Source: Escherichia phage RCS47
Length of the DNA: 64,000 bases
Sequence record: NC_042128.1
Strand: one strand, 5' to 3'
The translations under genes were made by a program, and so were the position numbers. This document shows positions 2,637 through 64,000 of this stretch, piece after piece; the stretch's first letter is position 1; every line of letters starts with the position of its first letter. The notes beneath the pieces are model-generated. The model made no database searches. It saw only the letters and a list, made by a program, of their open reading frames with translations, and was not told where the DNA came from.

Positions 2637-2825
2637 TAAATATATTATTTTTAATCTGAAATAATTGACAACTGACAAGTGACTTCAGTCAGAATCATCA
2701 CATGCCCGGTACGGATGGATCCCTTTTCAAATATTCCATGGACGGCACAGTCTGAGTACCGGGCGCTACCTTCAGTTGTATTGCTAAGCCGCCGCTGGTG
2801 GCTTTTCTTTTTTGTAGGGGGCGCT

Positions 2826-3467
2826 ATGGATAAGAAAATATGCGTTGTTTCAATGAGCGTCGGCAAACCGGCGTCAATGACTGCTGCATGGATCAACAAT
2901 GAGCTGATAATGGCTGAGCGGACCAGCTACCCTGAACGCCGCCGCGATATGGAACTCCAGCTGCTGCGCGAATTGCGAGAAAAAGAGGAAAAGGGTTTTA
3001 TCGTGCTGGTGGAAGAGGAAAACAGCTTTATTACTGGTCGAGTTGGCCAGCGTGTAAGGTTGCGCGATCCCTTCATGAACGGCAGGCCGGTACTGATTGA
3101 AGCAATGCAGATTTACAAGGAGCTGGAACGCCAGAAAGCGATCAAGTTACCGCGCAAGGAATCCGGCAAATACATCCTCCACCAAAGCATCTTCGATTCC
3201 GAACACGATAAAAAAGGCGATGAATTTTTCAACATCAACTGGAGTGAAATAACGACAGAGCATGTTCTGACGTTACTATGTTGCTTTGCGACGGAATACA
3301 ACAACGTTGCCAGCGCCGACTACATCAGGGCAATGGCTGGAGAAGTTGAGGCCCGCCAGGAACCATCGTTACTAAGCCCTCTGATTAACATAATTCGCGG
3401 AACCCAAACACTGGCGCAAAAACAAGTACCACGAGGGGAATTGACGGGTAAAGGTAATTATCTCTGA
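2826..3467 (+). CDS. Mat-like protein (by synteny after ref)
   Basis: ATG at 2826 preceded by GGGGG; 213 aa; position matches P1 mat. Confidence 0.5.
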   Translation: MDKKICVVSMSVGKPASMTAAWINNELIMAERTSYPERRRDMELQLLRELREKEEKGFIVLVEEENSFITGRVGQRVRLRDPFMNGRPVLIEAMQIYKELERQKAIKLPRKESGKYILHQSIFDSEHDKKGDEFFNINWSEITTEHVLTLLCCFATEYNNVASADYIRAMAGEVEARQEPSLLSPLINIIRGTQTLAQKQVPRGELTGKGNYL

Positions 3468-3506
3468 AAGATGCCCGGCGACAGACCGGGCAAAAGGGCG
3501 GAAAGT

Positions 3507-3755
3507 TTAATCAGCATTCAGGAGCAATGCGTTATCTATGATGATCTGCTCCCATTCTTCGAATGCCCGATCGCGGACGCCCTGGGGAACACTGTTAGTT
3601 TTGAAATCGACGACCGTACGCCATTTCCCGTCCGGACGGTACATGCGCAGAGCTTTACTTCCCCCTTCCCTGCGCACCTCAACGTTATGCTTGTCAGCAA
3701 ACTCTTGTAATGCTCGTAGCGTCCCATGCTTTACTGTGTAGTATCGCTTTTTCAA
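3507..3755 (-). CDS. lxc: Lxc/Bof C1 co-repressor
   Basis: 82-aa product MKKRYYTVKHG...; TTG start overlapping upstream stop; last gene of darB-ulx-lxc operon. Confidence 0.6.
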   Translation of the reverse strand: MKKRYYTVKHGTLRALQEFADKHNVEVRREGGSKALRMYRPDGKWRTVVDFKTNSVPQGVRDRAFEEWEQIIIDNALLLNAD

Positions 3756-10993: not shown

Positions 10994-11059
10994 TGGTAAT
11001 CCTTAACAAGTGACTAGTGTTAAATTCCGTTGAAACACGATGCGAATTATTCTAATTAA

Positions 11060-14639: not shown

Positions 14640-14772
14640 AAAGACCTCATAAGCGAATTTTTTACGCTCCAGGACAAACACTCATTCACAGCCAATACCG
14701 ACTGACTCGATCCCTTTAGAAGGCACAGGATAATGCAAATCACTTGTTAGCCACGTTTCAAAGATATACATT

Positions 14773-15494: not shown

Positions 15495-15946
15495 ATGAAT
15501 AACATGACAACGAAAGAGCTTTTGACGGCACTTCCAAAATACAAAAGCCATAAAACAGTTCGCGCCTCAAAAATCAAAGATATCGAAATTATCGCCCTAA
15601 TGGATGTGGTCCTTTTTTGCAACATCGAAGTCGTTGAGCCAGAAGGGGTAAAAGTCCATGTTGATAAAATATTTTTGCAAAAACACCGACCAGAAATTGG
15701 CGGATATCTGGTCGCTTATGAGGACGGATCTCTGTCCTATTCACCAGAAAAAACATTTGAAGAAGGCTTTAGTCGGACTAACGACTTCTTCGAAAATGGG
15801 GTATCGCTCAGCATTGAAGGTCACAATGGGGTGACATTCATTACAGCCAGGGACGTAACTATTTCTGCTGGCGGTATCGCTACTCTACAAGAAGAAATCG
15901 ACCTTGAAGCAGCCGACTTTTCTGACGCGCTGATGTGGCTGAAGGA
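15495..15946 (+). pseudogene. 5' part of a phage gene interrupted by the IS26 unit
   Basis: ORF from ATG 15495 runs in frame into the IS26 left end; its continuation is found after the second IS26 at 25584. Confidence 0.65.
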
Positions 15947-16766
15947 GGCACTGTTGCAAATAGTCGGTGGTGATAAACTTATCATCCCCTTTTGCTGATG
16001 GAGCTGCACATGAACCCATTCAAAGGCCGGCATTTTCAGCGTGACATCATTCTGTGGGCCGTACGCTGGTACTGCAAATACGGCATCAGTTACCGTGAGC
16101 TGCAGGAGATGCTGGCTGAACGCGGAGTGAATGTCGATCACTCCACGATTTACCGCTGGGTTCAGCGTTATGCGCCTGAAATGGAAAAACGGCTGCGCTG
16201 GTACTGGCGTAACCCTTCCGATCTTTGCCCGTGGCACATGGATGAAACCTACGTGAAGGTCAATGGCCGCTGGGCGTATCTGTACCGGGCCGTCGACAGC
16301 CGGGGCCGCACTGTCGATTTTTATCTCTCCTCCCGTCGTAACAGCAAAGCTGCATACCGGTTTCTGGGTAAAATCCTCAACAACGTGAAGAAGTGGCAGA
16401 TCCCGCGATTCATCAACACGGATAAAGCGCCCGCCTATGGTCGCGCGCTTGCTCTGCTCAAACGCGAAGGCCGGTGCCCGTCTGACGTTGAACACCGACA
16501 GATTAAGTACCGGAACAACGTGATTGAATGCGATCATGGCAAACTGAAACGGATAATCGGCGCCACGCTGGGATTTAAATCCATGAAGACGGCTTACGCC
16601 ACCATCAAAGGTATTGAGGTGATGCGTGCACTACGCAAAGGCCAGGCCTCAGCATTTTATTATGGTGATCCCCTGGGCGAAATGCGCCTGGTAAGCAGAG
16701 TTTTTGAAATGTAAGGCCTTTGAATAAGACAAAAGGCTGCCTCATCGCTAACTTTGCAACAGTGCC
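15947..16766 (+). mobile_element. IS26 copy 1
   Basis: 820 bp, ends GGCACTGTTGCAAA ... TTTGCAACAGTGCC. Confidence 0.92.
16010..16714 (+). CDS. tnpA: IS26 transposase
   Basis: 234 aa [35 protein letters not shown]... Confidence 0.95.
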
Positions 16767-17421
16767 TTTCGCCCTCATCCGGTTCATGACGGTCGGGCAG
16801 GGAGGCAATCTGAATATGGCGATACTGGCCGGCATATTCGGTAATAAGATGGCTTAAATTGCCGTCCACCTTCTGCGCGTGAAACAGATCTAACTGCACC
16901 GCCAGGTTCGGCCTGTCGACCCGTTTCACCATCGCCAGCGTCTGATATTGACTGTGGTAGAGATAGCCCGGTTTGGTCTGCGGATTCAGCGCTTCGATGA
17001 GTATCCGCTTGTCGTGGCGGGCAAAGCACTCCGCCGCGTAGCGCAGATTATCGATAAGCACGGCCTCGCAGGCTGCGCGATCCGCTCCCGGCGGCACCAC
17101 GCCGGCCATGATATGCACCTGCGGGCAACCGAGCTGGCAGGCATACTCCAGCGCCAGCTCAATATCGCGTCGGGCCTCCGCGCTTCTCCCGGGGATGGCG
17201 GCGAGCCCCCATTCTCCGGCGTTGACGTCGCCGGGTGGGGTATTGAACAGCACCAGCTGCAGCTGGTTCTCCTGCAGGCGCTGTCTGATTTCCCCGGCGG
17301 CATACTCATAGGGAAACAGAAACTCAACGGCTTCAAATCCCGCCCGGGCAGCGGCGGCAAAGCGTTCCAGGAACGGCAGTTCGGTAAACAGCATGGATAA
17401 ATTTGCAGCGAATTTTGGCAT
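16767..17421 (-). pseudogene. ygbM: ygbM-like hydroxypyruvate isomerase family gene, 3' end truncated by IS26
   Basis: N-terminal ~218 aa intact, reading frame continues into IS26. Confidence 0.65.
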
Positions 17422-17425
17422 GGTT

Positions 17426-18046
17426 TTATCTCAGTTCTTTTACTTCGTCAGCGGTCAGGTAGCGGATCTCGCGGTTGCCGAGGGTAAATATCAGCCGTGC
17501 GGTCTCTTCCAGTTCCTCGGTATTGTTGGTGGCTTCGCGCAGCGATGAGCCAGTAACCACCGGTCCGTGGTTGGCCAGTAAAAAGGCGTTATAGCGGGGC
17601 GCCAGCCCGGCCAGCGCCTGGGCAATACGGTCATCGCCCGGCCGGTAGTAGGGAACCACCGGGACGTCGCCGACGCGCATCACCACATAGGGGGTAAAGG
17701 GGCGGATACAGTTGTGCGGATCGAGCCCCTGCAGGCAGGAGAGCGCGGTCAGATAGTGGCTGTGCAAGTGGACGATCGCCTTGCAGGCCGGGTTGTGCAA
17801 ATAGACTGCCCGGTGAAAAGTGACCTCTTTCGACGGTTTGTCGCCGGAGATCCATTCTCCTTGCAGCGTCACCACCGACAACCGCTGAGCCTGCAGTTCG
17901 CCGAGGCAGGCGCCGGTCGGCGTCGCCAGCAGGTTGCCGTCCGGCAGCAGCAGCGACAGATTGCCAGCGGAGCCGGTGGCATAGCCGCGGCTAAATAACG
18001 AGGCGCCAATCTGCACCATTTCCTCTCGCAGTTGTTGCTCAGTCAT
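17426..18046 (-). CDS. ygbL: class II aldolase/adducin family protein (YgbL-like)
   Basis: 206 aa from ATG 18046; part of ygbJKLM-type operon. Confidence 0.65.
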
Positions 18047-19304
18047 GACGAAACTCCTGCTGGGCACGGGCAAAGAACTGGATATCGCCGAAGTTACCTG
18101 ACTTCAGCGCCAGGGAGAGCGGCTGGCGGGTGTCACGCACCCAGGGCACGCCAGGGGAGATGGTCGGCCCAATATGGAACGCCTCAACCCCCAGGGTCTG
18201 CGCCACAATGCTCGACGTTTCCCCTCCGGCCACAATAAAGCGGGTAAATCCTTTCGCCTTCAGGGCGGCGGCAAGAGCGGCAAACAGCTGTTCCACCCGT
18301 TCGCTGCTGGCCTTGTCGCCATACTGCGCCTGGATCCGCTGCAGCGTTTGCGGCTCGGTGGTGGCATAGATCATCGGCGCCAGCGGCGCATCGCGCTGCG
18401 CGTCCACCCAGTCAGTCAGCGTCCTGACGTAGCTCTCCAGATCGGTAAAGCAGGCGCTTAAGTCGACGGCGCGGGCGGGGGCCTGTTGACGATAGGCCGC
18501 CACCTGGCTGTTGGTCATCACCGAGCAGGAGCCCGAGAGCACCACCGCCGGGCCGACCAGCGGCATGCCGGCCTGAGCGCTTTCACCCCGGGCGCCATGG
18601 CGCTGCGCCAAGTCGCGGGCGAGGCCGATGGCGAGGCCGGAACCGCCGGAGACCAGCTTCATCTCCCGCAGCGCCACGCCCTGGGTGAGCAGATCCTGTT
18701 CGCTGAGGGCGTCGAGCACCACATAGCGCACCGCCGGATCGTTGACTGCCGCCAGCGCGGCGGCGACCGCCTCCGGCCCCCGGGCGACAATCGGCCAGGC
18801 AATCAGCGCGGCTTTTCCGCGCCCCTGGCGCTCAATTAAGCGGCCCAGGTGCGCATCCTCCATCGGCGTCACCGGATGGTGGCGCATCCCGGACTCATTC
18901 AGCAGTTGCTCGCCGACGAACAGATATCCCTGATAGACCGTGCGGCCGTTAACCGGCAGCGCCGGGGAAATCACCGTCCGCGTCTCACCCAGCTCGGCCA
19001 GCAGGGCATCCAGCACCGGGCCAATGTTGCCCTGCGCGGTGCTGTCGAAAGTGGAACAGTACTTGAAATAAAACTGCTGACAGCCCTGGGCCTGCAGCCA
19101 GCGCAGGGCCGCCAGCGACTGGCTGACGGCCATTTCCGCCGGGCAGGAGCGAGTTTTCAGGCTGATGACCACCGCCTCGCTGGTCAGCGGAAGATCGCGG
19201 GTCGGCACGCCATTCAGTTGCACCGTCGGCATGCCGTTGCGCACGAGGAAGCTGGCAATATCCGTGGCGCCGGTGAAGTCATCGGCAATGACACCAAGCT
19301 GCAT
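18039..19304 (-). CDS. ygbK: four-carbon acid sugar kinase family protein (YgbK-like)
   Basis: ~421 aa; operon context. Confidence 0.6.
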   Translation of the reverse strand: MQLGVIADDFTGATDIASFLVRNGMPTVQLNGVPTRDLPLTSEAVVISLKTRSCPAEMAVSQSLAALRWLQAQGCQQFYFKYCSTFDSTAQGNIGPVLDALLAELGETRTVISPALPVNGRTVYQGYLFVGEQLLNESGMRHHPVTPMEDAHLGRLIERQGRGKAALIAWPIVARGPEAVAAALAAVNDPAVRYVVLDALSEQDLLTQGVALREMKLVSGGSGLAIGLARDLAQRHGARGESAQAGMPLVGPAVVLSGSCSVMTNSQVAAYRQQAPARAVDLSACFTDLESYVRTLTDWVDAQRDAPLAPMIYATTEPQTLQRIQAQYGDKASSERVEQLFAALAAALKAKGFTRFIVAGGETSSIVAQTLGVEAFHIGPTISPGVPWVRDTRQPLSLALKSGNFGDIQFFARAQQEFRHD

Positions 19305-19315
19305 GTTGTCTCTCC

Positions 19316-20218
19316 TCACTGTTTATGGCCCGGCAGGGTGATGCCGTTGAAAATCTTGATCACCGCGCTGTCATCTTCCCGACCGAATCCGGCATTACTG
19401 GCGGAGGTGAACATATTCAGCGCGGTGGTAGCGAGCGGCAGCGGGAAGGTCAGCGCCCGGGCAGTGTCATTCACCAGCCCGAGATCTTTGACAAAAATAT
19501 CGACAGCGGATTTTGGCGAGTAATCGCCATCCAGGACGTGCTGCATGCGATTCTCAAACATCCATGAATTACCCGCCGCGTGGGTGACCACGTCATACAT
19601 CGTTTCGAGTGGGATCCCGGCGCGGGCGGCAAGCGCCATCGCTTCGGCGGCAACGGCGATGTGCACCCCGGCCAGCAGCTGATGGATAATTTTTACCGTC
19701 GAGCCAAGACCAATGTCGCTCCCTATGCGGTAGACTTTGCCGGCCACGGCGTCCAGCACCGGCGCGAGGCGGGCAAAGGCGGCATCGCTCCCGGAGGCCA
19801 TCACCGTCATGTCGCCGGCGGCCGCTTTCACGGCGCCGCCCGATACCGGCGCGTCGAGCATCAATAGCTGGTACTCCGCCAGCGCCTCGGCAATGGCCTG
19901 AGCATCGGCGGAAGCGATGGTGGACGACACCATCACGACGGTGCCCGGCTTCAGATGGGCGGCGAGGCCGCTCTCGCCGAACAGGATCCCCCGCACCTGG
20001 GCGGCATTGACCACCAGCAGCACAACTGCATCCAGTTCCGCGGCGAACGGCACCGCGCTGGGGCCCGCGCCATTGGCGCCCGCCGCCAGCAGTGCGCGAC
20101 AGTTGTCGGGATTGATGTCAACGCCCCAGGTGTTCAGGCCCGCCTGCAGGCAGGCGCGGGCGGCGCCCATGCCCATTGAACCCAGTCCAATCACGCAGAC
20201 GTTAGTGTGTGCAGCCAT
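19316..20218 (-). CDS. ygbJ: NAD-dependent 3-hydroxyisobutyrate dehydrogenase family protein (YgbJ-like)
   Basis: 300 aa; N-terminal GLGSMG Rossmann motif. Confidence 0.7.
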   Translation of the reverse strand: MAAHTNVCVIGLGSMGMGAARACLQAGLNTWGVDINPDNCRALLAAGANGAGPSAVPFAAELDAVVLLVVNAAQVRGILFGESGLAAHLKPGTVVMVSSTIASADAQAIAEALAEYQLLMLDAPVSGGAVKAAAGDMTVMASGSDAAFARLAPVLDAVAGKVYRIGSDIGLGSTVKIIHQLLAGVHIAVAAEAMALAARAGIPLETMYDVVTHAAGNSWMFENRMQHVLDGDYSPKSAVDIFVKDLGLVNDTARALTFPLPLATTALNMFTSASNAGFGREDDSAVIKIFNGITLPGHKQ

Positions 20219-20478
20219 GCTGGTCTCCTTGTGAACATTAGTTAATTAATGTGATTTAATGATAGAATAAAGCGTTATCATGTGAATTTATGTGAGAGTT
20301 ATCACGAATAACCCACATGAATATAAAAAATTCACAGGCGGAAAGAGGCTGCACAACGGCGATTCTTGCCCTAAAATAGCGTAAAAACAGCGGCAAAGCG
20401 CGATAACAACACCGGGTGTCGCCAGGGCCGTAGCCTGGGTGGTGACGCCTGGTGTGAAAAAATGGTAAGGGGAGAGCG

Positions 20479-21240
20479 GTGATTCCAATAGAACGACATC
20501 AGCGTATTTTAGCCCTGGTGGAGCAGCGTGGGGCGGTAAGCATTAACGAGCTGACGGAGATCCTCGGCGTGTCCCATATGACCATCCGTCGGGACGTCAG
20601 TAAACTGGAGGAGCAGGGGCTGCTGGTCAGCGTCTCGGGCGGCGTGCGCGCCGTCAGCCGGCTGGCTGCGGAACCCAGTCATCTGGTGAAAAGCACGCTG
20701 CAGAGTGAGGAGAAACAGGCGATCGGCGCGCTGGCGGCGAGTCATATCGCTAAAAACAGTTGCATCTATCTGGATGCCGGGACTACCACCCTGGCGCTGG
20801 CGCGGGCGATCCTCGACCGGAACGATCTCCAGGTGGTCACCAATGATTTTGAGATAACCCAGCTGCTGATCGATGCCAGCCAGTGCGGCGTGATCCACAC
20901 CGGCGGCACTCTGTGCCGGGAGAACCGCTCCTGCGTGGGCGAATCGGCGGCGCGTACGTTACGCCACCTGGCTATCGATACGGCCTTTATCTCCGCCAGC
21001 GGCTGGGACAGTCGCGGGATATTCACCCCTGATGAGAACAAGGTTACCGTCAAGGAGACCGTCAGCCAGGTCAGCGCGAGAAGCATCCTGCTGTGCGACA
21101 GTTCGAAATACAATCAGGTGGCCACGTTTATGGCGTTACCTTTGACCCGGTTCACCACCATCATTACCGACCGGCATCTTTCCGATGCCGCCGCCAGTCA
21201 TATCGCCCGGCACGCCTGCGAGGTGCTGCGGGCCGGATAA
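20479..21240 (+). CDS. ygbI: DeoR family transcriptional regulator (YgbI-like)
   Basis: 253 aa; N-terminal HTH then sugar-binding domain; divergent from ygbJ. Confidence 0.7.
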   Translation: MIPIERHQRILALVEQRGAVSINELTEILGVSHMTIRRDVSKLEEQGLLVSVSGGVRAVSRLAAEPSHLVKSTLQSEEKQAIGALAASHIAKNSCIYLDAGTTTLALARAILDRNDLQVVTNDFEITQLLIDASQCGVIHTGGTLCRENRSCVGESAARTLRHLAIDTAFISASGWDSRGIFTPDENKVTVKETVSQVSARSILLCDSSKYNQVATFMALPLTRFTTIITDRHLSDAAASHIARHACEVLRAG

Positions 21241-21260
21241 CGCGCGCGGCCACCGCCGGG

Positions 21261-22121
21261 TTAGCGTTGCCAGTGCTCGATCAGCGCCGCGCCGATCCCG
21301 GCGATTTGCTGATTTCGCTCGGCCATGCTCGCCGGGGTATCCCGCAGATAAATCACCACAATGCGCTCTGCTTTGTTATTCGGGCCAAGCAGGGCGACAA
21401 TCCCGCGCGCACCCCGCTCGCTAGCTCCGGTCTTATCGGCGATAAACCAGCCCGCCGGCAGCACGGAGCGGATCAACGGTCCGGCGACCCGATCGTCCAC
21501 CATCCACTGCAGCAGCTGCCGTTGCGAACGGGCGCTCAGACGCTGGCTGGTCAGCAGCTTGCGCAGGGTCGCGGCCATGCTGGCCGGGGTAGTGGTGTCG
21601 CGGGCGTCGCCGGGAAGCGCCTCATTCAGTTCCGTTTCCCAGCGGTCAAGGCGGGTGACGTTGTCGCCGATCTGGCGCAAAAAGGCAGTCAATCCTGCGG
21701 GGCCGCCGACGGTGGCCAGTAGCAGATTGGCGGCGCTGTTATCGCTCATGGTAATGGCGGCGGCGCAGAGTTCGCCGACCGTCATGCCGTCGGCAAGGTG
21801 TTTTTCGCTGACCGGCGAGTAGTCCACCAGATCCTGCTGGCGATAGTGGATCTTTCGCTCCAGCTGTTCGTCACCGGCATCCACCCGCGCCAGCACTGCG
21901 CCGCAGAGCACTACTTTAAAGGTGCTCATCATGGGAAAGCGTTCATCGGCGCGCCAGGCGGTCAGCGTGCGGCCGCTGGCCAGATCCATTTCTATCATGC
22001 CTACGCGGCCCGACAGCTGGCTTTCGCTTAGTTTAATTTGCTCAAGCGGCTGCGGGCTGGCGTGTACCGCCAGCGGCAGGGTGGCTAACAGGGAGATAAT
22101 ACACAGGCGAATATAACGCAT
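21261..22121 (-). CDS. blaSHV: SHV class A beta-lactamase, Ser238 variant (SHV-2-like, extended-spectrum)
   Basis: 286 aa [21 protein letters not shown]...; [11 protein letters not shown] with AGC (Ser) codon at Ambler 238, Glu240, Leu35. Confidence 0.93.
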
Positions 22122-22397
22122 AACCACAATACATCCTTGAGTGAGGGCCGATAAAGGCGAGTAAAGAAGCGACAAATAAGAATAACCCGGCGTTTTGCTG
22201 ATTCACAATTCCTCTTTTTTCCTTCATCATTTTTCATCTTTTATTTCGAATAATCAATATCTAGCCCTGCCTAAGCACGCTATTTTTTGACTCAAGGCCG
22301 TGATGAACTATAAGAAAGTACTAAATACCGCACTCTGTCGGGCGTCGCTGTTTGCCGATCACCACGCCCGCCGGTCCCTGCGGTTCGCCAACGCTAT

Positions 22398-22679
22398 ATG
22401 CCATCCCGGGAGGAACTGGTGCACCCGATAATTAAGGTCATGCTGGTGGGCGGTAAGGCGGACGGGCTGTTGGTCAGCGTCGCCGATGACGCGACCGAAG
22501 TCTCGGTGACGCCTGCGCAGTACGGTGCGCTATCCGGGCAATCGTTGAGCTACCGAATTGTTAGCCAAACCATTGACGATGAACGCTATTTTTTTGGCGT
22601 TTTCAGCGACGCCCATCAGGATAGCGATAAGCTGACGCGGGTCGCCCTGACCCGTGGAATGAAAAAAATGTTCTGTTAA
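22398..22679 (+). CDS. hypothetical small protein upstream of recF-like ATPase
   Basis: 93-aa ORF, no recognisable motif. Confidence 0.3.
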   Translation: MPSREELVHPIIKVMLVGGKADGLLVSVADDATEVSVTPAQYGALSGQSLSYRIVSQTIDDERYFFGVFSDAHQDSDKLTRVALTRGMKKMFC

Positions 22680-22765
22680 ACCCTGCCCGAAAGGGGGCGT
22701 AAGAGGGTATGCCGGGCGCCGCTGTGCTACTGTGGCAGCCTTCTATTTCCAGGGCCGGACGCATA

Positions 22766-23854
22766 ATGATTCAGTACATTCGTATTCAAAATTTTCGCTC
22801 AGTAAAGGATATCGCGCTGGAGCTCGGGCCGCTGAACATTGTCTTCGGCCCTAACGGCTGCGGTAAATCCAATATTTATAACGCCATCCACCTGCTGACC
22901 GCTGCCGCTGAGGGCAGGCTTTCGGGGTTTATCAGCGAAGAGGGCGGTCTGGAGAATATGATGTGGTCCGGGGAGCGTTCGCCCCTCGATCGTCACCCCC
23001 GCCGGCTGCAAATCGCCTGCCGGACCGACAGCTTCGATTATGAACTGCAGATAGGCTTCCCTGAAAAATTGCCCTATCCGACGCAATTCATGCTCGATCC
23101 TATCGTTAAAGAAGAGAATATCTGGCTGGCCGGCTACTCCCGCCGGCCTTCCTCCCGCGTACTGCAGCGCAAGAATCAGGCGGCGTTTCTCGTCGATGTC
23201 ACCGGGGAGAAAAGTACTTTCACCGAGAGTATTTATGAAAATGAGTCGGTGTTCGGTCAGCTTGGCGAGCCGCACCGTTTTCCCGAAGTATCGCGAGTGC
23301 GGGAGACGCTGCGCCGTTGGCGGTTTTATCATGAATTCGCGATTGGCCGTCATTCGCCACTGCGTCAGCCGGCCGTGGGTTACCGTTCGCCAGTCCTCGA
23401 CAGCGATGGCCAGAATCTCGCCGCCGCCTTTCAGACCATTGTCGAGATCGGCGCGGAGGAGATTTTGCATGAAATCCTTGCCGACGCCTTTCCCGGCTGC
23501 CAGTTTTATTGTGAAAACGAGCACTCGCGTTTCGCTCTGAAAATGCGTCGCGAAGGGATCCGCCGCCCGCTGCTGGCGGCGGAGATGTCCGACGGTACGC
23601 TGCGCTTTTTGTGCCTCGCCGTCGCGCTGCTCAGTCCGCGCCCGCCGGCGTTTCTGGCGATCAATGAACCGGAGAACAGCCTGCATCGCGACATGTTGCC
23701 CGCGCTGGCCCGGCTGATTATCGAGGCCTCGCGCTACAGCCAGATCTGGCTGACCAGCCACTCGGCGGAGCTGGCGGAGCTTATCGCCGCCGGGGCGCCT
23801 TGTCAGCGCTATGCGCTGGAGAATCGCGGCGGTGAGACGCGGATTGTCGAGTGA
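22766..23854 (+). CDS. RecF-like AAA family ATPase
   Basis: 362 aa from ATG 22766; MIQYIRIQNFRS, Walker A GPNGCGKSN, C-terminal LAINEPENSLH. Confidence 0.7.
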   Translation: MIQYIRIQNFRSVKDIALELGPLNIVFGPNGCGKSNIYNAIHLLTAAAEGRLSGFISEEGGLENMMWSGERSPLDRHPRRLQIACRTDSFDYELQIGFPEKLPYPTQFMLDPIVKEENIWLAGYSRRPSSRVLQRKNQAAFLVDVTGEKSTFTESIYENESVFGQLGEPHRFPEVSRVRETLRRWRFYHEFAIGRHSPLRQPAVGYRSPVLDSDGQNLAAAFQTIVEIGAEEILHEILADAFPGCQFYCENEHSRFALKMRREGIRRPLLAAEMSDGTLRFLCLAVALLSPRPPAFLAINEPENSLHRDMLPALARLIIEASRYSQIWLTSHSAELAELIAAGAPCQRYALENRGGETRIVE

Positions 23855-23884
23855 AGCCCGTCATCCCTGACGGGGGCGCTGGAG

Positions 23885-24763
23885 TCAGGCGGGGCTCTGC
23901 GTCTCTGCGGTCGGCAGCAGACGGTTGCCGCCGCGTAGGGTGACGAACGAGAGCAGGGTGAAGCTCAGGGTTATGCAGCCGAGGATCAGATAGGCCTGAT
24001 GGAAGCCGACGGTGTCGTACATCCGGCCCACCCAGGCGGAAAGCACCACCCCGGACAGCTGTTTTGACAGATTAAAACCGATCAGGAACAGGGTGGCCGA
24101 GAGGCGCGGGTTAAAGGCGGAAGAGATATATTTAAAAGTTCCCACCAGCAGGAAGGGGATCTCAAACATATGCAGCATCTTGAGGATCACCACCTCGACT
24201 GCCGATGAGGCGAAGGACGACCCGAGAATACGCACCGACATGATCATCCCCGCGGTCAGCAGGGCGTTTTTGGCGCCGATGCGGTTAACGATGGCCGGCG
24301 CGCAGAACATGATCAGCGCGTTGAGCAACTCGCCGCCGGTGGTGACGAAGCCAAACACTTCGGTACCGCGCTGCGGACTGGCGAAAAAGCTTTTGAAAAA
24401 GTTGGCGAACTGCTGGTCAAACACGTCGTAGACGCTGGCGACACCCACCACATAGACGATAAAGCCCCAGAAGCGCGGCATACGCAGCAGCTCTGCCGCC
24501 GTACGCAGCGAAAAGGCCTGGCGATTGGCGCCCAGCGCCTCGATAACCTGGGCGCTGTTGCTGCTTTCCGGCCGCGACAGCCAGAGCAGCAGACCGAGCA
24601 CCAGCGCAAAGCCGGAGGCGATCCAGAAGGTGATATTGGGATCGATGCCGAACAGCACGCCGGTTATCGAGGCGCATAGCGCCCAGCCGACGCAGCCTGC
24701 GACCCGCACTTTGCCATATTCAAAGCGGTTGGCCCGGCTGACGCGTTCGATATAAGCTTCCAC
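23885..24763 (-). pseudogene. lacY: lacY lactose permease, 5' end truncated by IS26
   Basis: C-terminal ~290 aa of an MFS permease colinear with LacY (...FEYGKVRVAGCVGWALCAS...); frame continues into IS26. Confidence 0.8.
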
Positions 24764-25583: not shown

Positions 25584-25816
25584 TGAAGGATGGCAAGAAA
25601 GTTGCTCGACGCGGGTGGAACGGCGAAAACCAATTCTGCTGGCTGGTTCCTGAAGGACAGTACCCGGCACGAATGGAAGCCATTAAGGGATATTTCCCCG
25701 GCGACCTCGTTCCGTATGGTGCTTATTTCGCCTTAAAAAATGCACAAGGTGTAGTTGTTCCGTGGGTTCCTTCTGTAGGCGACTTACTGGCATGTGACTG
25801 GTTTGTAGTGGAGTGA
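25584..25816 (+). pseudogene. 3' part of the interrupted phage gene; DUF2829/Tad2-like domain
   Basis: (K)DGKKVARRGWNGENQFCWLV...PWVPSVGDLLACDWFVVE, in frame with 15495-15946 after removal of the IS26 unit. Confidence 0.6.
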
Positions 25817-25822
25817 TTTAAC

Positions 25823-36119: not shown

Positions 36120-36179
36120 AAGTTCCCTCCTACGTTGTCAGGAGGTAATGGTATGCAAAGTAACTTCTCATCTGGTTGT

Positions 36180-39032: not shown

Positions 39033-39052
39033 AAGGCCCGCTATCGGGCCTT
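39033..39052. terminator. bidirectional hairpin between convergent U' and U
   Basis: AAGGCCCG-CTAT-CGGGCCTT. Confidence 0.55.
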
Positions 39053-39055
39053 GTC

Positions 39056-39589: not shown

Positions 39590-39591
39590 CG

Positions 39592-51336: not shown

Positions 51337-51876
51337 CTACCACCAACTGCTAGCTTTCTTCTCTCTAGCTTTTCCTTCGCTTTGCAGTAAATCTTTACTT
51401 CCTGTAGAAATATTTCTATTTGCATCAGCCTCAGACTGAATTACATCTGTCTTAGCTGCTCTCTCCTTCAACTCCTGCTCTATAAAATCGTTTTCTCGCT
51501 GGACACGAGCCGCTTTTGCTTGCAGTTCGAGTTTCATGCTTTCGAGTTGCAGCTTGCGAAGCTCATCCTCATAAGCTTGATCTCGCTTCTTGTCATTTGC
51601 TAGCTCGGCTTCTCGTTTTGCTCTACGTTCATTTTCTGCAGCAACACGCTGTTTTTCGCGTGCAGCAGCGGCAGATGCTGCTTTTTCTCTTCTAATACGT
51701 TCAGCTTGTGCTTGTTGGCGAATAAGTTCTTTTCTGGCATCCTCAGCTTGCTGCTCTTTAGCTCGCCCTTCATTTTCCGCTTGAGCAATAGCAGCAATTT
51801 GACTTTGCAACGAGTTAGCCAAGGCAGTGCCTACACTAAACGTAGAAAAGATTAGAAATAAAATAATTTTATTCAT
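51337..51876 (-). CDS. secreted coiled-coil protein
   Basis: 179 aa; signal peptide MNKIILFLIFSTFSVGTALA; Ala/Glu/Arg/Lys-rich; AT-rich codons. Confidence 0.5.
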   Translation of the reverse strand: MNKIILFLIFSTFSVGTALANSLQSQIAAIAQAENEGRAKEQQAEDARKELIRQQAQAERIRREKAASAAAAREKQRVAAENERRAKREAELANDKKRDQAYEDELRKLQLESMKLELQAKAARVQRENDFIEQELKERAAKTDVIQSEADANRNISTGSKDLLQSEGKAREKKASSWW

Positions 51877-51879
51877 AAA

Positions 51880-52392
51880 TTATTTCTTTTCTGGACAAGT
51901 AGCATTTGGCTGAATTCGAGTTTCATTATCTTTAGTTGAAATAAGCACAGCAAGCCCCGTTGTAAACTGGCATGCTTTACCAACTTGAGTTGAAGTGAAC
52001 ACCTTAGTTCCTTCTTTATAAGTCAGTGAAACACCTTCAACAATTGTTTTATCACTAACCAAAGAACCAGCCGCTGCACCAAGAGCCGCACCACCAGTAC
52101 CGCCAGCTACAGCACCCAGTGTCGATGTGCCTTTAACATTATAACCGGCAACGCCCCCAGCAACAGCTCCCAGTACCGCACCAAATGTCTGTGCCGCTTC
52201 TTTATTAGCTTTATTATCAACTTTCACTTTAGCTGGAAGCACAGAGATAATATTGACTGTCTTTGTTTCCTGCTTCGAATTCAATTGAGCGGTATCATAA
52301 ACATCGGCAGCATAATCAGCACCGCTAGATTGACACCCAGAAAGAAGAATTGCAGATACAACAAGAGCGCATAAAGTATACTTTTTAGACAT
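51880..52392 (-). CDS. glycine-zipper lipoprotein
   Basis: lipobox LLSGC after signal peptide; GAVLGAVAGGVAGY...GAVAGGTGGAALGAAAG glycine zipper. Confidence 0.55.
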   Translation of the reverse strand: MSKKYTLCALVVSAILLSGCQSSGADYAADVYDTAQLNSKQETKTVNIISVLPAKVKVDNKANKEAAQTFGAVLGAVAGGVAGYNVKGTSTLGAVAGGTGGAALGAAAGSLVSDKTIVEGVSLTYKEGTKVFTSTQVGKACQFTTGLAVLISTKDNETRIQPNATCPEKK

Positions 52393-52683
52393 AAGAATCA
52401 TCCAAGAAAAACAAAAACCGGCGAGAAGTTACCACGAGAACGGAAAGTAAACAAGAATACTCCCATTGACTTATATCAATTAATCAACTTTTTATAAGCA
52501 ACCCCTAACTTATTGTGTATAGCTGAAAAGTCAGAGACAAGTTCACCATCTGCATTATTTCTTAAGTTAATAGTTTATTGCTAACTTAATTTATGTATCG
52601 ACTATTGATATCCATCTTAAAGTAACAATATCCCTCTGCATTATTTTTCATCACAAATAATACTTCTATTGCACGACACTCAT

Positions 52684-52699
52684 CTGCTCTAATAAATTT
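52684..52699. promoter_or_regulatory. C1 operator-like site upstream of immI
   Basis: CTGCTCTAATAAATTT. Confidence 0.55.
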
Positions 52700-55259: not shown

Positions 55260-56105
55260 ATGCTGGCTAAAGTCACTTTCCTGAGCTGTATAACGATGAG
55301 CGATTTTACTTTTTCTGGCTATGAATTGGCCTGCTTTGTAACACACTCCGGTCTATCCCGTAGCGCCGGGCATATCCTGTCGCAATGTGCAAATCTCGCG
55401 GCAACAACCAGTGAATACTTCATTCACAAGCCTCACCGCCTGATCGCGGCAGAAACTGGTTATAGCCAATCAACCGTCGTTCGTGCATTCCGTGAAGCTG
55501 TAAACAAAGGAATCCTGTCTGTAGAGATTGTTATCGGCGATCACCGTGAACGTCGCGCTAACCTGTACCGGTTTACACCATCCTTTTTGGCCTTCGCACA
55601 ACAAGCCAAAAATGCGCTGATTGAAAGCAAATTAAAGATCTCTTCAGCGGCAACCAAGGTTAAAGCTGTTCTCGCTAAGACATTGGCTTTATTTAATTTT
55701 TTATCCACATCCCCATGTCAAAATGATACCCCCTCCCCCTGTCAGGATGACGTGGCAATAAAGAATAAGAAGTCACAAGTTAAAAAAACAAAAAGATCAG
55801 TTTCCGACGGTGCCGGAACGTCCAGACTCAAAAAATTGACTTCGTGGATCGCTGAGGCAAAAGCAAAAGCTGACAATCTGCGGTTATCCAAAAAACGCGC
55901 TCAAAAACATGAGTTCAAGCAGAAAGTAGAGGCGGCAGCGCGGAAATATGCTTACCTGAAGAACAAGCGTTCTCCTGATATTGGCGGGATATCAAACTTC
56001 GATAATCTGCCGCATTGCATGACGGTAAACGAAGCTCTTAATGCGGTTTTAGCCAAAAATAAAGATAACGAACAATGGGGTATACCGGCAGGATTCAGAG
56101 GGTGA
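55260..56105 (+). CDS. repL: RepL lytic replication initiator
   Basis: 281 aa directly after kilA. Confidence 0.65.
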   Translation: MLAKVTFLSCITMSDFTFSGYELACFVTHSGLSRSAGHILSQCANLAATTSEYFIHKPHRLIAAETGYSQSTVVRAFREAVNKGILSVEIVIGDHRERRANLYRFTPSFLAFAQQAKNALIESKLKISSAATKVKAVLAKTLALFNFLSTSPCQNDTPSPCQDDVAIKNKKSQVKKTKRSVSDGAGTSRLKKLTSWIAEAKAKADNLRLSKKRAQKHEFKQKVEAAARKYAYLKNKRSPDIGGISNFDNLPHCMTVNEALNAVLAKNKDNEQWGIPAGFRG

Positions 56106-56139
56106 TAGATTGCTCTAATCTGGAGTCACCTGGCGTTTT

Positions 56140-57470
56140 CAGCGAAAAACCGCCGAGAACCCTCGCCCAATGCGGGCGGGGAGGAAAGGCGGAAAAGCCC
56201 GAAGGGCTTTAAAAATATTATTACGGTGTTAGCATAAAAACCTGTACCAATGAGCGGTGACTATGTTAAGAGCAACAAAAGTACGCATCTACCCGACACC
56301 AGAACAGGCTGAATTTATCAACGCCCAGTTCGGTGCAGTGCGTTTTGTGTACAACAAAGCTCTGCATATCAAGAAACATTCTTACCAGCGGCACCGCGTA
56401 AATTTAAACCCGCGTAAAGACCTCAAACCACTGCTTGCAGTGGCGAAGAAATCCCGCCGGTATGGATGGCTTAAAGAATATGATTCTATTGCGTTGCAGC
56501 AGGCGGTAATTAACCTCGACGTGGCTTTTTCTAACTTTTTCAATCCGAAACTGAAAGCAGGTAAACCTACCTTTAAAAGTAAACACGGCAGACAATCTAG
56601 CTATCATTGTGTTGGCATAAAAGTCCTTGATGGTGCGATAAAAATACCGAAAATCTTGCCGATTGAAGCGCGTTTACATCGTGAAATTACGGGAATGCTG
56701 AAAAGTATCACGTTGAGCCGCAGCGCAACCGGGAAATACTACGCGTCGTTACTCTGTGACGACGGGATGGAAGCGCCGGCAAAGCCCGCACTGATATCAA
56801 ATGTGACAGGGCTGGATATGGGGCTGGCGCATTTTGTCATCAAATCGGACGGCAATAAAATTGCCAGTCCCCGCCACCTAATCAATGCAAGTCGCAACCT
56901 GCGCCGGAAGCAGAAAGCACTGTCCCGTAAGAAAAAAGGGAGCGCAAACAGGCGCAAAGCCAGAATACAACTTGCAGCCGTTCACGAACGGGTAGCCAGT
57001 GCCCGTGCCGATTTCCAGCACAAGTTATCTCGCGCAATTGTTGACGAAAACCAAGCGGTAATTGTCGAAACATTGAAAACGGCAAATATGATGAAAAATC
57101 ACCATCTGGCTCGTGCGATAGGCGATGCTGGATGGTCTGGATTCATCACAAAACTGGAATACAAAGCAACAGAGAAAGGTGTGCATCTGGTGAAACTGGA
57201 TCAATGGTTCGCCAGTTCGAAAACCTGCCACTGCTGCGGTCACAAAATGTCGGAGATGCCATTACATAAGCGCATCTGGCAGTGTCCAGAGTGTGGAGTT
57301 GAACATGACCGCGATATCAATGCGGCGCTCAACATCAAACGCAAGGGCATACTGGAATTACAAGCGGCGGGACTCGTCGTTTCTGCCCATGGAGGCCAGC
57401 GTAAATCCGTCACACAGACGGTTGCGGCTTAAGAAGTGGGAAGCCTCGCCCGACAGGGCGGGGAGCAGTC
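56140..57470 (+). mobile_element. second TnpB-only IS200/IS605-family element (boundaries approximate)
   Basis: near-identical hairpins CTCGCCC-N5/4-GGGCGGG at 56162-56180 and 57445-57462 bracket the tnpB ORF. Confidence 0.6.
56263..57432 (+). CDS. tnpB: TnpB RNA-guided endonuclease family protein (different subfamily from 31230-32438)
   Basis: 389 aa from ATG 56263; MLRATKVRIYPTPEQ..., C-terminal CHCCGH...CPECG zinc finger. Confidence 0.85.
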   Translation: MLRATKVRIYPTPEQAEFINAQFGAVRFVYNKALHIKKHSYQRHRVNLNPRKDLKPLLAVAKKSRRYGWLKEYDSIALQQAVINLDVAFSNFFNPKLKAGKPTFKSKHGRQSSYHCVGIKVLDGAIKIPKILPIEARLHREITGMLKSITLSRSATGKYYASLLCDDGMEAPAKPALISNVTGLDMGLAHFVIKSDGNKIASPRHLINASRNLRRKQKALSRKKKGSANRRKARIQLAAVHERVASARADFQHKLSRAIVDENQAVIVETLKTANMMKNHHLARAIGDAGWSGFITKLEYKATEKGVHLVKLDQWFASSKTCHCCGHKMSEMPLHKRIWQCPECGVEHDRDINAALNIKRKGILELQAAGLVVSAHGGQRKSVTQTVAA

Positions 57471-57770
57471 ACTATGGATTTTCTTTGGCGCGGTCTGGCC
57501 ATTAGGGGTCATGTTTGCTGCAACGTTTCTTCTGATGTGGATATTCACCCTTCCAGGTGATTTCTATAGAAAAAAAGCCAGACATTGATACACCCGCTGC
57601 GGTGTGCTTGAGGCTATCTGCTTCAGGCATTCCCCGAAAAGCAGATAGAAGAAAGCCCCAGTAAACATTATGCGTCCCGCACAACGCTTAACATTAACCG
57701 GGGCCATACCTATGCTTAGCGTGCTTAGATTAATCCTCTCCTCTGTCAAGGAGCAAGGAATTTTTTACTG

Positions 57771-58403
57771 CTATGCCGCCTTTCCAGTTATGGATTCAGC
57801 GACCAGAACAACCCCATGCTTACTTCGATCTGGGTGTTCACTCCATATCTCGGATTCAGGAATACTTACCCCGTCATAGCAAACACGTTCGCCGTCAAAC
57901 GGGTAATACTGAGCGGCATCGGTGTCGAGGATAAACACTTTTAGCTCGGAAGAGCGACGGGCGATATGTTGCCAAAGAGCTTTTCCACCTTCGTATTGCT
58001 CATTATCACTGAGCAAAACAACACCAGCTTTTGAGGCTACGGTTTCGTAAACAAAAGTAGCTAAACCGACATCCCGGACAGTTCCATCAACCACGATACC
58101 TTCAATCTGGGCAACATCGCTATCCTCCCAGAACTTCCTTACCAGTACGCCTTCAAGCTGCGGGCGACGTTGAAGTTCAAGAGTAGCGACAACCTTATGC
58201 CGCATATCACCATCGATAACAGAAGGCGCAGCCTCTATTACAGCTGCAAATGGGGTTTTGGAATCCCATATAACCTGGTAAAGCACACCCTGGATGGTAA
58301 CTCCGTCCAGGATCGAAAATCGACGAGCGACAGTACCCGGGGAGTACGACATTGGAATCACAGCCATTTTAGAGTCCCCCTTTAACAGTACAGGCACAAA
58401 CAT
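57771..58403 (-). CDS. hypothetical phage protein (PmgF position)
   Basis: 210-aa ORF; synteny only. Confidence 0.35.
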   Translation of the reverse strand: MFVPVLLKGDSKMAVIPMSYSPGTVARRFSILDGVTIQGVLYQVIWDSKTPFAAVIEAAPSVIDGDMRHKVVATLELQRRPQLEGVLVRKFWEDSDVAQIEGIVVDGTVRDVGLATFVYETVASKAGVVLLSDNEQYEGGKALWQHIARRSSELKVFILDTDAAQYYPFDGERVCYDGVSIPESEIWSEHPDRSKHGVVLVAESITGKAA

Positions 58404-58538
58404 CTACCTCAATAATTGTAGTTTATTAGAACATTAATAATCTAACATAAAACTCCAGACAATGTTATCGATGCATTTTTATATAAAATAGTTATAAAAA
58501 AAGCTCCCGAAGGAGCTTTAAAATACAAGGGATGACTC

Positions 58539-59048
58539 TTAATCCCACTCAATCCAGTTGTAGACGATACGAAGTGACGGGCGCACAGCGGCAGTCACAT
58601 CTTCGGTACTAAAGTCGATTGCATCACTGTAGATTTTGCAGTCCAACATTTCAATTGTTGTAGCAGCTTTTGTCACAGCGTTAACCCCGGAAGATTTGGA
58701 TTCAGGGGTAGCAGCCATCGTGATATCAACATAGTCCTTCGCCGCAATGCGATCCTTAATGAACTGAAGAATATCGCCTTCGATAGTCTCCACGCACTGG
58801 ACCTGGATTTCCCCAGAGTTTCGAATTGGTCCGTGCTGGTTGAACTTCACACCATTCGGACCATAGTCCTCCACATCCTCGCGAGTCATTTCAGGGATTT
58901 GCGACGTACGAACAAGTACACTGATATCTTCATAGCCTGCAAAAGTGAGCTGGAATTCAGAAGATACCAGTCGTTCGCCTTTGGCCGCGTTGGCAGTATA
59001 GCGGCCCTTAATAAATTTACGGTTTCCCTTAGTGTTATTGTGCCCCAT
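58539..59048 (-). CDS. late structural protein (BplB position)
   Basis: 169 aa; synteny only. Confidence 0.35.
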   Translation of the reverse strand: MGHNNTKGNRKFIKGRYTANAAKGERLVSSEFQLTFAGYEDISVLVRTSQIPEMTREDVEDYGPNGVKFNQHGPIRNSGEIQVQCVETIEGDILQFIKDRIAAKDYVDITMAATPESKSSGVNAVTKAATTIEMLDCKIYSDAIDFSTEDVTAAVRPSLRIVYNWIEWD

Positions 59049-59059: not shown

Positions 59060-59641
59060 TTACTGGAACGCCCGAACAATATCGGAGCTGTTATATATCG
59101 AAGAACCGGTCAACTGGAGGTTGACGGTGTTTTTCAGGAAATATCCATTACTGTCCCTTGGCGCATCGAGATCAAAACTTAAGTCCTGGATAGCGACATC
59201 GGTGATGTTGATCCGGCGACCAATGTTTAGCGTCACACGTTCCGGGATTCGACCACCAACATTGGCCGCTTTTAGTTCCGGGCTAATCATGGCTGTCAAC
59301 GCGGCGATAGCGCCTGAAACTTCAATGAATGGATTGTTCAAAGCAATGAAAGTTACGGGCAGCGTGAACGTCGGCGGTGTCCCCCCTTCCCAAACCATTA
59401 AGCTGTTCCAACGGGCAACCGACGTTGTTTCAGTACCTACTTGCACAAACCCCCCCAGAGCGCCAGAAACAGACCCCATGGACATACCAGTAAACGGTGC
59501 TTCCCAATTCTGGGCCATGTTCATTGCCGCCCCCTGGCTGATATATCCGGTAACCTGGTACTGAGAGTTCGTTAAAGTAACTTTCAGAAATGGCGATACA
59601 CCATCAGCCTGGCTGTAAACCCCATAAGGTATAGGTGCCAT
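59060..59641 (-). CDS. late structural protein (PmgG position)
   Basis: 193 aa; synteny only. Confidence 0.35.
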   Translation of the reverse strand: MAPIPYGVYSQADGVSPFLKVTLTNSQYQVTGYISQGAAMNMAQNWEAPFTGMSMGSVSGALGGFVQVGTETTSVARWNSLMVWEGGTPPTFTLPVTFIALNNPFIEVSGAIAALTAMISPELKAANVGGRIPERVTLNIGRRINITDVAIQDLSFDLDAPRDSNGYFLKNTVNLQLTGSSIYNSSDIVRAFQ

Positions 59642-62091: not shown

Positions 62092-62151
62092 AACTTTCCC
62101 TGTTATGCGCCCCGCACGGGGGCGCTATGTTAAACGGAGAACTTCCCCTGA

Positions 62152-63879
62152 TTACTCAGAGTCACCGGCATCAATCGTGTCGCCGCTAATGAAGTTAAGC
62201 CCGCCTTTTTTGGCCATTGTCAGCGTTACACGAGTGAAGTAATCAGCGCCGTTGCGTGGGTGCATATCGTTGATAGCCGAACCCCACAGCGTGGTACGGT
62301 TGACCAGCGCCGGAGTGGTCGGATGCTGGAACGGGATGGCCGGGACAGCATCACCAGTCACGAAGCCTGCTTTACCCGGATTTTCATCACGGACGTAGCA
62401 CAGCACATCCATCGAGCTGAACTGAATGTTCTCTGTCGTTAAGTTCTTACAAATACCAGCAGGTACTTCGTACACTTTCACGTTACCGAACAGGGTACCG
62501 ATGTAGTGAACATACGGAGTCTGGATATAGTCTTCGGCTGGCTGGAAGAAATCCTTCGGCAACTGTTTGAAGAAAGATGCTGCATCAGCACCAGCAAACA
62601 TCCCCATCGCACCAGAAGATTTAACGCGCTCAATAATGTCGCGATATACAGTCTGGAATTTGCCACGAATGATGGTTGCCCATACATCAAAGGACTGGTT
62701 AACCGGCAGAGCGATGTCAAAGGTGTCGGTCGCAAGAGTACGCCAGATCATGATGCGAAGACGCAGCATATCCTGTTCATGAGACAGGTATTCCTTCAGG
62801 GTGCGGAACTGTAGGGAACCCAGGTCCAGACCAAATTCACGCTGTGCTTCATACGCCGCCTGTACCGTGTGCTCAGCCGCGATAACGAACTGGCTTGGGA
62901 ACAGGGTGTATTTCTTCATTTCGTGGTTGATCAGCGGGATCAGCTCAGGAGCGGCTTCAATATTGATTTCCGTCTCAATTGCGATCTCAGTGCCTTTATC
63001 CGGCGCTTTGGAGAACGACAGGGCAATCTGACCAATGTTGTAGTTCAGAGAGCAGGTAACAGTGATTTGCTCACCAGCAGCATTAGTAAACGAGTGAAGT
63101 AGGCTGCCGGAACCGTTATCAACAACAGACTTAATACGGTTAACGTAGATGTTAGTACGACCTTTTCGGATTGGTACATTCTGGCCTTCGAAGTCTTCCA
63201 TCTTGAAGGTTGCGGTTTTGCTGGTGCCATCGGAGCTTGCCACCAGCACATAGCGGCGGCGTAACTGGCTGTACACACCGACGGATTGCATGTCCAGAAC
63301 ATCACCAGCAGCATAAGAACCAAAAGAGGAACCTGCCACGTTAAAGACTTCATAGATGTCGGACTGGTCACGCGTAACCGGAATGAAGGTACACGCATCA
63401 GCGGTAGCTGCCCCCAACTGAACAGGCAGGATCATCGCGAGGAATAAAGGCAGACGCATAACACCGTCAGAAACGCTCATCATCTCTGCTGCGACGGATT
63501 CCAGCATCGCTTTATTAGTGGCATCCATGCTATTGCGGGTGGACTCAATCAGGCAGTTTTCCAGCGTCTGGTGGCAGGAGGCCAGAATTTCCGGACGCGG
63601 CATAGATTTATGTGCTGCGGCGTAGTCAGCCAGTGCACTTGCCCACGCTGTAGCGATTTGAGCGGTGGCATTATCAGAGATACCCGCAAAAACCGGGTCT
63701 TTACGTGCAGCTTCAAGGATAGATGCGGCACGCGCGGCATCATCTTTAATGAATTGGTTATCAGTACCGAACTGCGCAGTGCTTGCCCAGCCAAGCACAG
63801 CTTTAGAGCGTTTTGCGATATCTGCAATACGATTCTGGTATTCGCGTAAGTTACTCAATTTACTCTTCCTTAAACACAA
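62152..63879 (-). CDS. putative major capsid protein precursor (P1 gene 23-like)
   Basis: 575 aa (~63 kDa), TTG start in track; position of P1 gene 23. Confidence 0.45.
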   Translation of the reverse strand: MCLRKSKLSNLREYQNRIADIAKRSKAVLGWASTAQFGTDNQFIKDDAARAASILEAARKDPVFAGISDNATAQIATAWASALADYAAAHKSMPRPEILASCHQTLENCLIESTRNSMDATNKAMLESVAAEMMSVSDGVMRLPLFLAMILPVQLGAATADACTFIPVTRDQSDIYEVFNVAGSSFGSYAAGDVLDMQSVGVYSQLRRRYVLVASSDGTSKTATFKMEDFEGQNVPIRKGRTNIYVNRIKSVVDNGSGSLLHSFTNAAGEQITVTCSLNYNIGQIALSFSKAPDKGTEIAIETEINIEAAPELIPLINHEMKKYTLFPSQFVIAAEHTVQAAYEAQREFGLDLGSLQFRTLKEYLSHEQDMLRLRIMIWRTLATDTFDIALPVNQSFDVWATIIRGKFQTVYRDIIERVKSSGAMGMFAGADAASFFKQLPKDFFQPAEDYIQTPYVHYIGTLFGNVKVYEVPAGICKNLTTENIQFSSMDVLCYVRDENPGKAGFVTGDAVPAIPFQHPTTPALVNRTTLWGSAINDMHPRNGADYFTRVTLTMAKKGGLNFISGDTIDAGDSE

Positions 63880-64000
63880 GGCACTTGTGTGAATCCCTTT
63901 TCGGAAGAGATTTTATTGAAAGTCACTTGTTGACTTTCTCGTGACAAGCAATTTTTTTATTTTTTCGGGAGGAGGGGAGGAAGGTAAAATCCAAGGTGAA

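Follow-up and report, generated by a model that had tools for sequence, protein, structure and literature searches.

Seven late promoters of the P1 type in Escherichia phage RCS47 account for a recurring motif upstream of its late operons

What is the short sequence that recurs upstream of late operons in the DNA of Escherichia phage RCS47? The stretch analyzed here, referred to as the window, comprises 64,000 nucleotides of sequence record NC_042128.1. A first-pass annotation had noticed the 9-mer ACAAGTGAC, exact or with one mismatch, ahead of five late genes, and had proposed that it might be the element, conserved near -22 in the late promoters of P1, that is recognized with the Lpa activator. 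We find that the recurring motif is the already-described P1 "-22 box," which is annotated in the database and stands at its expected positions, and its discovery is therefore a rediscovery. Judged from the sequence, the motif is almost certainly the upstream half of a P1-type late promoter activated by Lpa. The evidence consists of the promoter anatomy, positional orthology with P1, excess over chance, placement at seven late operons, and a footprint kept in relatives.

There are 11 late promoters in P1, and each carries a conserved inverted repeat of 9 bp to which Lpa binds (PMC10695390). Lpa binds a conserved sequence centered at -22 and requires the host protein SspA (PMC3152322, PMC1891329). 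Where PMC1891329 cites Hansen et al. 2003, Lpa is described as a sequence-specific DNA-binding protein thought to contact SspA bound to RNA polymerase (RNAP), and SspA itself is said not to bind late-promoter DNA. Homologous phage-specific late promoters serve the tail-fiber and dar operons, according to the passage of PMC9025707 that cites Guidolin 1989. Each of the sites described below has an imperfect inverted repeat of 9 bp, with the consensus AAGTGACTT and spanning about -25 to -17, in most cases with AC ahead of it, and a sigma-70-type -10 hexamer (TANNNT) exactly 4 bp downstream of the box, with no -35 element. In the mechanism that this literature suggests for them, host RNAP holoenzyme alone would be unable to use such promoters. 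Lpa (gp10), produced from a C1-repressed early promoter, would bind the box and, together with RNAP-associated SspA, would substitute for the absent -35 contact, with the result that the morphogenesis, lysis, and packaging operons would be turned on late in lytic growth.

Seven late promoters at P1 positions

A 10-kb piece of the window is 97.5 to 98.3% identical to P1, P7, JL22, SJ46, and related Punavirus records, and a megablast map places the window collinear with P1 record AF234172 from coordinate 1, the lox site, with several cassettes exchanged. Because of this collinearity, the P1 annotation can be transferred by position, and on sequence grounds the window is a P1-like phage-plasmid. 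Through the coordinate map, the "late promoter," 9-bp "-22 region," and "-10 signal" features of AF234172 fall on seven sites in the window. These include all five positions orthologous to those first proposed, each with an annotated -22 region and -10, which bears out the suggested link to the Lpa-recognized element of P1.

Two of the seven promoters lie on the plus strand. LPmat (2675..2695) consists of AC at 2675-2676, the box AAGTGACTT at 2677-2685, a 4-bp spacer, and the -10 hexamer CAGAAT at 2690-2695, followed by the ATG of mat at 2715, and LPpro (11006..11026) carries the box AAGTGACTA at 11008-11016 and the -10 TAAATT at 11021-11026 ahead of the TTG start of the portal gene prt at 11069. 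On the minus strand, LPlyz (14727..14747) has the box AAGTGATTT at 14745-14737, the -10 TATCCT at 14732-14727, and the lyz ATG at 14639. LPdar (36148..36168), which is flanked by AG and not AC, has the box AAGTTACTT at 36166-36158 and the -10 TACCAT at 36153-36148 and serves the lydA-lydB-hdf-darA operon. The same box occurs at 43014-43006 in LPs (42996..43016), with the -10 TACAAT at 43001-42996 and the ATG of R at 42965, at the head of the tail-fiber operon R-S-U; the P1 record gives LPs as identical to the previously identified Ps. LPsit (51288..51308) combines the box AAATGACAA at 51306-51298 with the -10 TAGAAT at 51293-51288 and precedes the pmgC ATG at 51256 and the operon pmgC-tub-pmgB-sit-pmgA-bplA-16. 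Finally, LP23 (63910..63930) has the box AAGTGACTT at 63928-63920, the -10 TAAAAT at 63915-63910, and the TTG start of gene 23, encoding the major capsid protein, at 63858.

The counterparts in AF234172 are LPmat at 2678-2696, LPpro at 17251-17269, LPlyz at 20969-20987, LPdar at 31212-31230, LPs at 38318-38336, LPsit at 46608-46626, and LP23 at 58825-58843. Thus, seven of the P1 late promoters (LPmat, LPpro, LPlyz, LPdar, LPs/Ps, LPsit, LP23, LP26, LPpmgL, LPhot, and LPpac) share position, operon, and architecture with sites in the window, and the four others, namely, LP26 and LPpmgL with one common box, LPhot, and LPpac, lie beyond its range, for a total of 11. The 21-mers are identical to their P1 counterparts at six of the seven sites. 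LPsit differs from P1 by one box substitution (AAATGACAA here, AAATGACTA in P1) and by its upstream flank.

All seven sites lie upstream of, and are co-oriented with, late operons (mat, prt-pro, lyz, lydA-darA, R-S-U, pmgC-sit-16, and 23-22-21), with the start codon 20 to 88 nt beyond the -10, and the spacer between box and -10 is 4 bp in every case. The box is of the type AAGT-N-ACTT, with its center some 21 to 22 bp ahead of the predicted start. It is a perfect palindrome in LPmat, LPdar, LPs, and LP23 (4/7), has one mismatch in LPpro and in LPlyz, and has three in LPsit. At a spacing of 16 to 18 bp, the best match to a TTGACA -35 element reaches at most 3/6 at all seven sites. LPmat has a TTGACA 19 bp upstream of its -10, where P1 annotates an overlapping, separate sigma-70 promoter, Pmat.

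The relation of the first-proposed 9-mer to this architecture is simple. The sites align as AC-AAGTGACTT-N4-TANNNT, and ACAAGTGAC is therefore the annotated box of 9 bp displaced by two bases in the upstream direction, overlapping it by 7 bp and adding the two conserved bases AC. All five sites of the first-pass annotation are present and correctly oriented, and two of its coordinate pairs are off by 1 to 3 bases. Exact copies lie at 2675-2683 (plus), 11006-11014 (plus), and 63922-63930 (minus), whereas the one-mismatch form ACAAGTGAT near lyz is truly at 14739-14747 (minus) rather than 14740-14748, and the one-mismatch form ACAAGTTAC near R-S-U is at 43008-43016 (minus) rather than 43005-43015. 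With P1-equivalent starts, the distance from motif to start codon is about 40 nt for mat, 63 for prt, 108 for lyz, 51 for R, and 72 for gene 23, a range of 40 to 108 nt in place of the 45 to 150 that had been claimed. The list of late promoters was correct for these five and incomplete: LPdar, whose sequence AGAAGTTAC carries two mismatches to the 9-mer, and LPsit, with ACAAATGAC, were both absent from it. Another one-mismatch copy, at 63880-63888, was rejected as a promoter; it belongs to a small hairpin, CACAAG-tgc-CTTGTG, within the leader of gene 23.

Excess over chance

A 9-mer will recur in 64 kb without any shared function, and the copies could in principle be nothing more than such chance occurrences. 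The loosely defined motif is compatible with this: with up to one mismatch, the 9-mer occurs 14 times in the window against 10.8 expected, 16 of 100 shuffles reach 14, and 8 of the 14 matches are background. Enrichment, which had been put forward as a check, is thus not found for the loose motif but is found for stricter definitions. The exact 9-mer occurs 3 times against 0.34 expected, the perfect palindrome AAGTNACTT occurs 7 times against 0.75, and a degenerate pattern of box, 4 bp, and -10, fitted after the sites had been seen, occurs 8 times against 0.23; none of 100 shuffles reached any of these counts. Furthermore, scanning with a weight matrix constructed on the seven P1 sites gave exactly seven strong sites in the window at 18.8 to 27.2 bits, the next best scoring 15.3. 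Chance also leaves unexplained that all the cited sites have a -10 at a fixed 4 bp, are co-oriented with late genes, and match annotated P1 features.

Several observations count against assigning these copies to Lpa-activated late promoters. Because the P1 orthologs served to derive both the matrix and the degenerate pattern, there is some circularity in the scores that these give in the window. Within genes lie three perfect AAGTNACTT boxes that are not annotated as promoters: at 46090-46098 in sit, at 55270-55278 in the first codons of repL, and at 59575-59583 in pmgG. The lpa gene itself lies outside the 64-kb window (in P1, at 89,991-90,443), and its presence in this element is assumed from relatives, which carry it; Lpa dependence is for that reason something we infer here. 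Finally, in an unbiased test of 7-mers for enrichment in noncoding DNA, which has low power with seven sites, AAGTGAC (6 of 10 copies noncoding) ranked about 13th of 7,963 k-mers, with a P value of 5e-4 that is not significant after correction.

The three intragenic boxes are all present in P1 as well and amount to a mild excess over the 0.75 expected. None of the three has the AC flank, and only the box at 55270 has a hexamer at 4 bp (CAGCAT, on the minus strand), in the arrangement AAGTGACTT-tagc-CAGCAT-TACAAT, which would be directed into kilA in antisense orientation. K-V-T is encoded by two of the three, and in Cronobacter phage JK004 the pmgG box is lost at the DNA level while the KVTL peptide is kept. 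We do not count these boxes as unannotated promoters, given their position in coding DNA, the missing AC flank, and the single hexamer; they are probably chance or coding by-products.

The top noncoding 7-mer in the window was CTCTAAT/ATTAGAG (7 of 8 copies noncoding), the core of the C1 repressor operator, and sequence statistics by themselves thus reveal both regulons, the early one of C1 and the late one of Lpa. This result also bears on the idea that the motif belongs to another P1 control system, either C1 operators or terminator hairpins of upstream operons. Proximity lends that idea some color, as in P1 some 35 bp separate LPmat from the C1 operator Omat upstream of it, and a GC-rich hairpin precedes LPs. 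However, the C1 operator has a different sequence, with the core CTCTAAT, and is annotated apart from the late promoters in P1, and a 9-bp box is too short for a terminator stem. We consider this explanation very improbable and retain the late-promoter assignment.

Conservation in diverged relatives

Cronobacter phage JK004 has 72% nucleotide identity to the window. Scanning its whole genome with the P1 matrix gave 13 matches of at least 12 bits, 12 of which sit 13 to 147 nt upstream of a co-oriented annotated gene, including the orthologs of R, gene 23, prt, lyz, pmgC, lydA, gene 26, and pacA; the single exception (1/13) lies antisense within a gene. In ungapped alignments of six orthologous promoters between the window and JK004, conservation is confined to -27 to -7, a stretch that begins with the AC and closes with the last base of the -10. 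Per-position identity over the six pairs is 6-6-6-5-5-3-4-6-6-5-6 across ACAAGTGACTT and 6-6-2-4-5-6 across the hexamer, and the flanks reach about 2 to 3 of 6. In the JK004 late promoters, the box has drifted in its left half (AAGCGACTT, AAGGGACTT, and ACATGACAA), while AC and GAC are retained. JK004 also encodes an Lpa homolog with 67% identity, and P1 Lpa matches Pfam family PF25716 (BPP1_LPA) as its type. Footprints this sharp, kept in a relative so far diverged, refute the chance explanation, which together with the shuffles and the promoter context leaves it next to no probability.

The same arrangement is found elsewhere. Like the window, P7, SJ46, JL22, and JK004 have a box and -10 upstream of orthologous late operons. 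A 25-bp block upstream of the capsid gene, GTCAACAAGTGACTTTCAATAAAAT, is unchanged in a viral contig encoding an 80%-identical capsid protein, where both of its flanks have diverged. LPpro is conserved in JK004 and is kept as AC-AAGTAACCA-gtga-TAAATT in a relative with a 73%-identical portal protein. Further away, P1-like plasmids from Nissabacter, Enterobacter soli, and Pantoea, whose portal proteins are 51 to 55% identical, have CA-AAGTGAACA-tttg followed by ATAGAT, ATAAAT, or CTACGT about 60 nt upstream of prt. By its sequence, this looks like a diverged late-promoter box in which the 4-bp spacing has been kept and the right half has drifted.

Broader searches added little. A scan of a viral contig collection with ACAAGTGACTTNNNNTANAAT returned, among the matches listed, mostly P1-like copies of LP23, and the remaining matches are uninformative because tens of chance matches are expected (a rough estimate for 16 specified bases in about 1e11 bases). 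A scan of genome contigs with a two-sequence Lpa alignment found only 3 loci, which are of no use for coevolution.

Extent and symmetry of the recognized site

Which bases are recognized? Alongside the symmetric 9-bp repeat, the conservation pattern raises the tentative possibility, which we regard as somewhat doubtful, that the recognized element is instead an asymmetric site of about 13 bp, Y-N-A-C-A-A-G-T-G-A-C-T-T, spanning -29 to -17. The table behind this reading holds 22 sites from the window, P1, and JK004, and the observation is post hoc on orthologous sites that are not independent. Position -29, a column not used in finding the sites or in the matrix, is a pyrimidine in 22/22 sites, position -28 is never T, and AC occupies -27/-26 in 20 of the 22; outside this set, P1's own LPsit has G at -29. 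The mirror-image spacer positions carry no information in these sites, and, within the box, position 4 is the one least often shared by orthologs. The 13-bp site may also be read as two direct half-sites, YNAC and TGAC, 7 bp apart. If the asymmetric reading is true, Lpa, or Lpa with RNAP and SspA, would read the site directionally, and this would explain why nearly all the boxes fire one way only. The asymmetry and the upstream extension, the latter of which may already be described in the primary P1 literature, could guide mutational or structural work on Lpa.

The same pattern invites a different account of who touches the DNA, in which the box is a contact of RNAP/sigma-70 remodeled by Lpa and SspA, comparable to sigma appropriation at T4 middle promoters, with the TGAC core acting as a displaced -35-like element. 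The box, at -27 to -17, does lie where RNAP normally covers the DNA, GTGACT at its core is similar to TTGACA, and the AC flank and GAC are invariant in 6/6 orthologous pairs, against 3/6 that keep box position 4. Nor are the symmetric spacer positions conserved, which is unexpected for a symmetric dimer site. On the other side, P1 annotates one box common to the divergent LP26 and LPpmgL, which fits the site of a symmetric factor, and the summaries of Hansen et al. given in passages of PMC1891329 and PMC3152322 weigh against a contact of this kind. A remodeled polymerase as the reader of the box is in our judgment unlikely, and direct binding by Lpa remains the preferred reading.

A hairpin over LPsit

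A strong inverted repeat, CTCGTAGAATC...GATTCTACGAG, lies at 51262-51296 (minus strand), with an RNA fold of -19.4 kcal/mol (z = -6.3). Its 5' arm holds the LPsit -10 hexamer and its 3' arm holds GAGG, the Shine-Dalgarno sequence of pmgC. The repeat has no annotation in the P1 record, and it is kept in JK004 with a compensatory change (TAAAAT paired with GATTTTACGAG). From the position of the arms, a transcript starting at LPsit would contain the 3' arm only, and upstream read-through would form the hairpin over the ribosome-binding site. The hairpin could serve to restrict translation of pmgC to late transcripts; alternatively, it could act as a terminator. Hairpins sequestering the Shine-Dalgarno sequence are not a general property of late-mRNA leaders: we folded six leaders and rejected this idea, since only that of LPsit was significant and the others were at background.

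Gene content relative to P1

Several segments of the window depart from the P1 record. At 3422-3500, mat is joined nearly directly to lxc, and some 6.3 kb present in AF234172 is missing, comprising res and mod, the genes of the EcoP1 type III restriction-modification system, and the IS5 of P1. Between ssb and isaA, a block of about 10.3 kb at 15498-25827, not in P1, is 99.9 to 100% identical to a widespread module of Klebsiella, Enterobacter, and Citrobacter plasmids that carries the extended-spectrum beta-lactamase gene blaSHV and also bears otnK, ltnD, and a lacY fragment; we infer that IS26 may flank it. The open reading frame at 21261-22175 (minus) encodes a class A beta-lactamase by Pfam. 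Together, the block and this open reading frame identify the window as a P1-like phage-plasmid that carries resistance.

Two genes encode TnpB/IS605 OrfB proteins with a Cas12f1-like TNB domain, both on the plus strand. One, at 31230-32438, is inserted between ddrB and ddrA, and the other, at 56257-57432, lies within a segment (56119-58497) that replaces the rlfA-rlfB-pmgF region of P1. The invertible C segment (37141-41169), comprising the variable part of the tail fiber and the U/U' genes, is inverted relative to the P1 reference, with which it shares only about 89% identity. P1 homology stops exactly at the upstream boundary of LPsit, and the P1 superimmunity genes simA, simB, and simC are replaced at 51308-52685 by a gene for a DUF5384 protein (51337-51876, minus) and one for a TraT-like protein (51880-52401, minus; a weak match, below the Pfam cutoff). 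Relative to P1, then, the window's element is without res/mod, has a blaSHV module, has other genes instead of sim, and has its C segment inverted, and none of these differences affects the promoters.

Significance and comparison with other systems

These results add little new biology. They do show that a phage-plasmid carrying drug resistance keeps the complete P1 late-transcription circuitry across the window, with seven intact Lpa-type promoters at seven late operons, which argues that the element is still a functional phage and not a decayed plasmid. They also provide an annotation rule for P1-like elements: AC, AAGTGACTT, 4 bp, and TANNNT, with no -35.

The arrangement has parallels beyond P1-like elements. 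At the middle promoters of phage T4, a MotA box at -30 is used with sigma-70 remodeled by AsiA, and as in P1, a phage activator reads an upstream element that replaces the -35 while the sigma-70 -10 is kept. The proteins are unrelated, the element stands at -30 in T4 and at -22 in P1, and AsiA acts on sigma, whereas SspA is an RNAP-associated host protein. The late promoters of phage Mu likewise depend on one phage DNA-binding activator, C, acting at promoters with a poor -35 (PMC3152322). The site of Mu C spans -30 to -55, upstream of RNAP; that of P1, the box, falls between positions -35 and -10. Another parallel is the MglA-SspA-PigR system of Francisella, in which, as in P1, a DNA-bound activator targets an SspA-family protein bound to RNAP, and for which P1 Lpa/SspA has been cited as precedent (PMC1891329). 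The Francisella system governs a cellular virulence regulon and not a phage, and its activator and DNA element are unrelated to those of P1.

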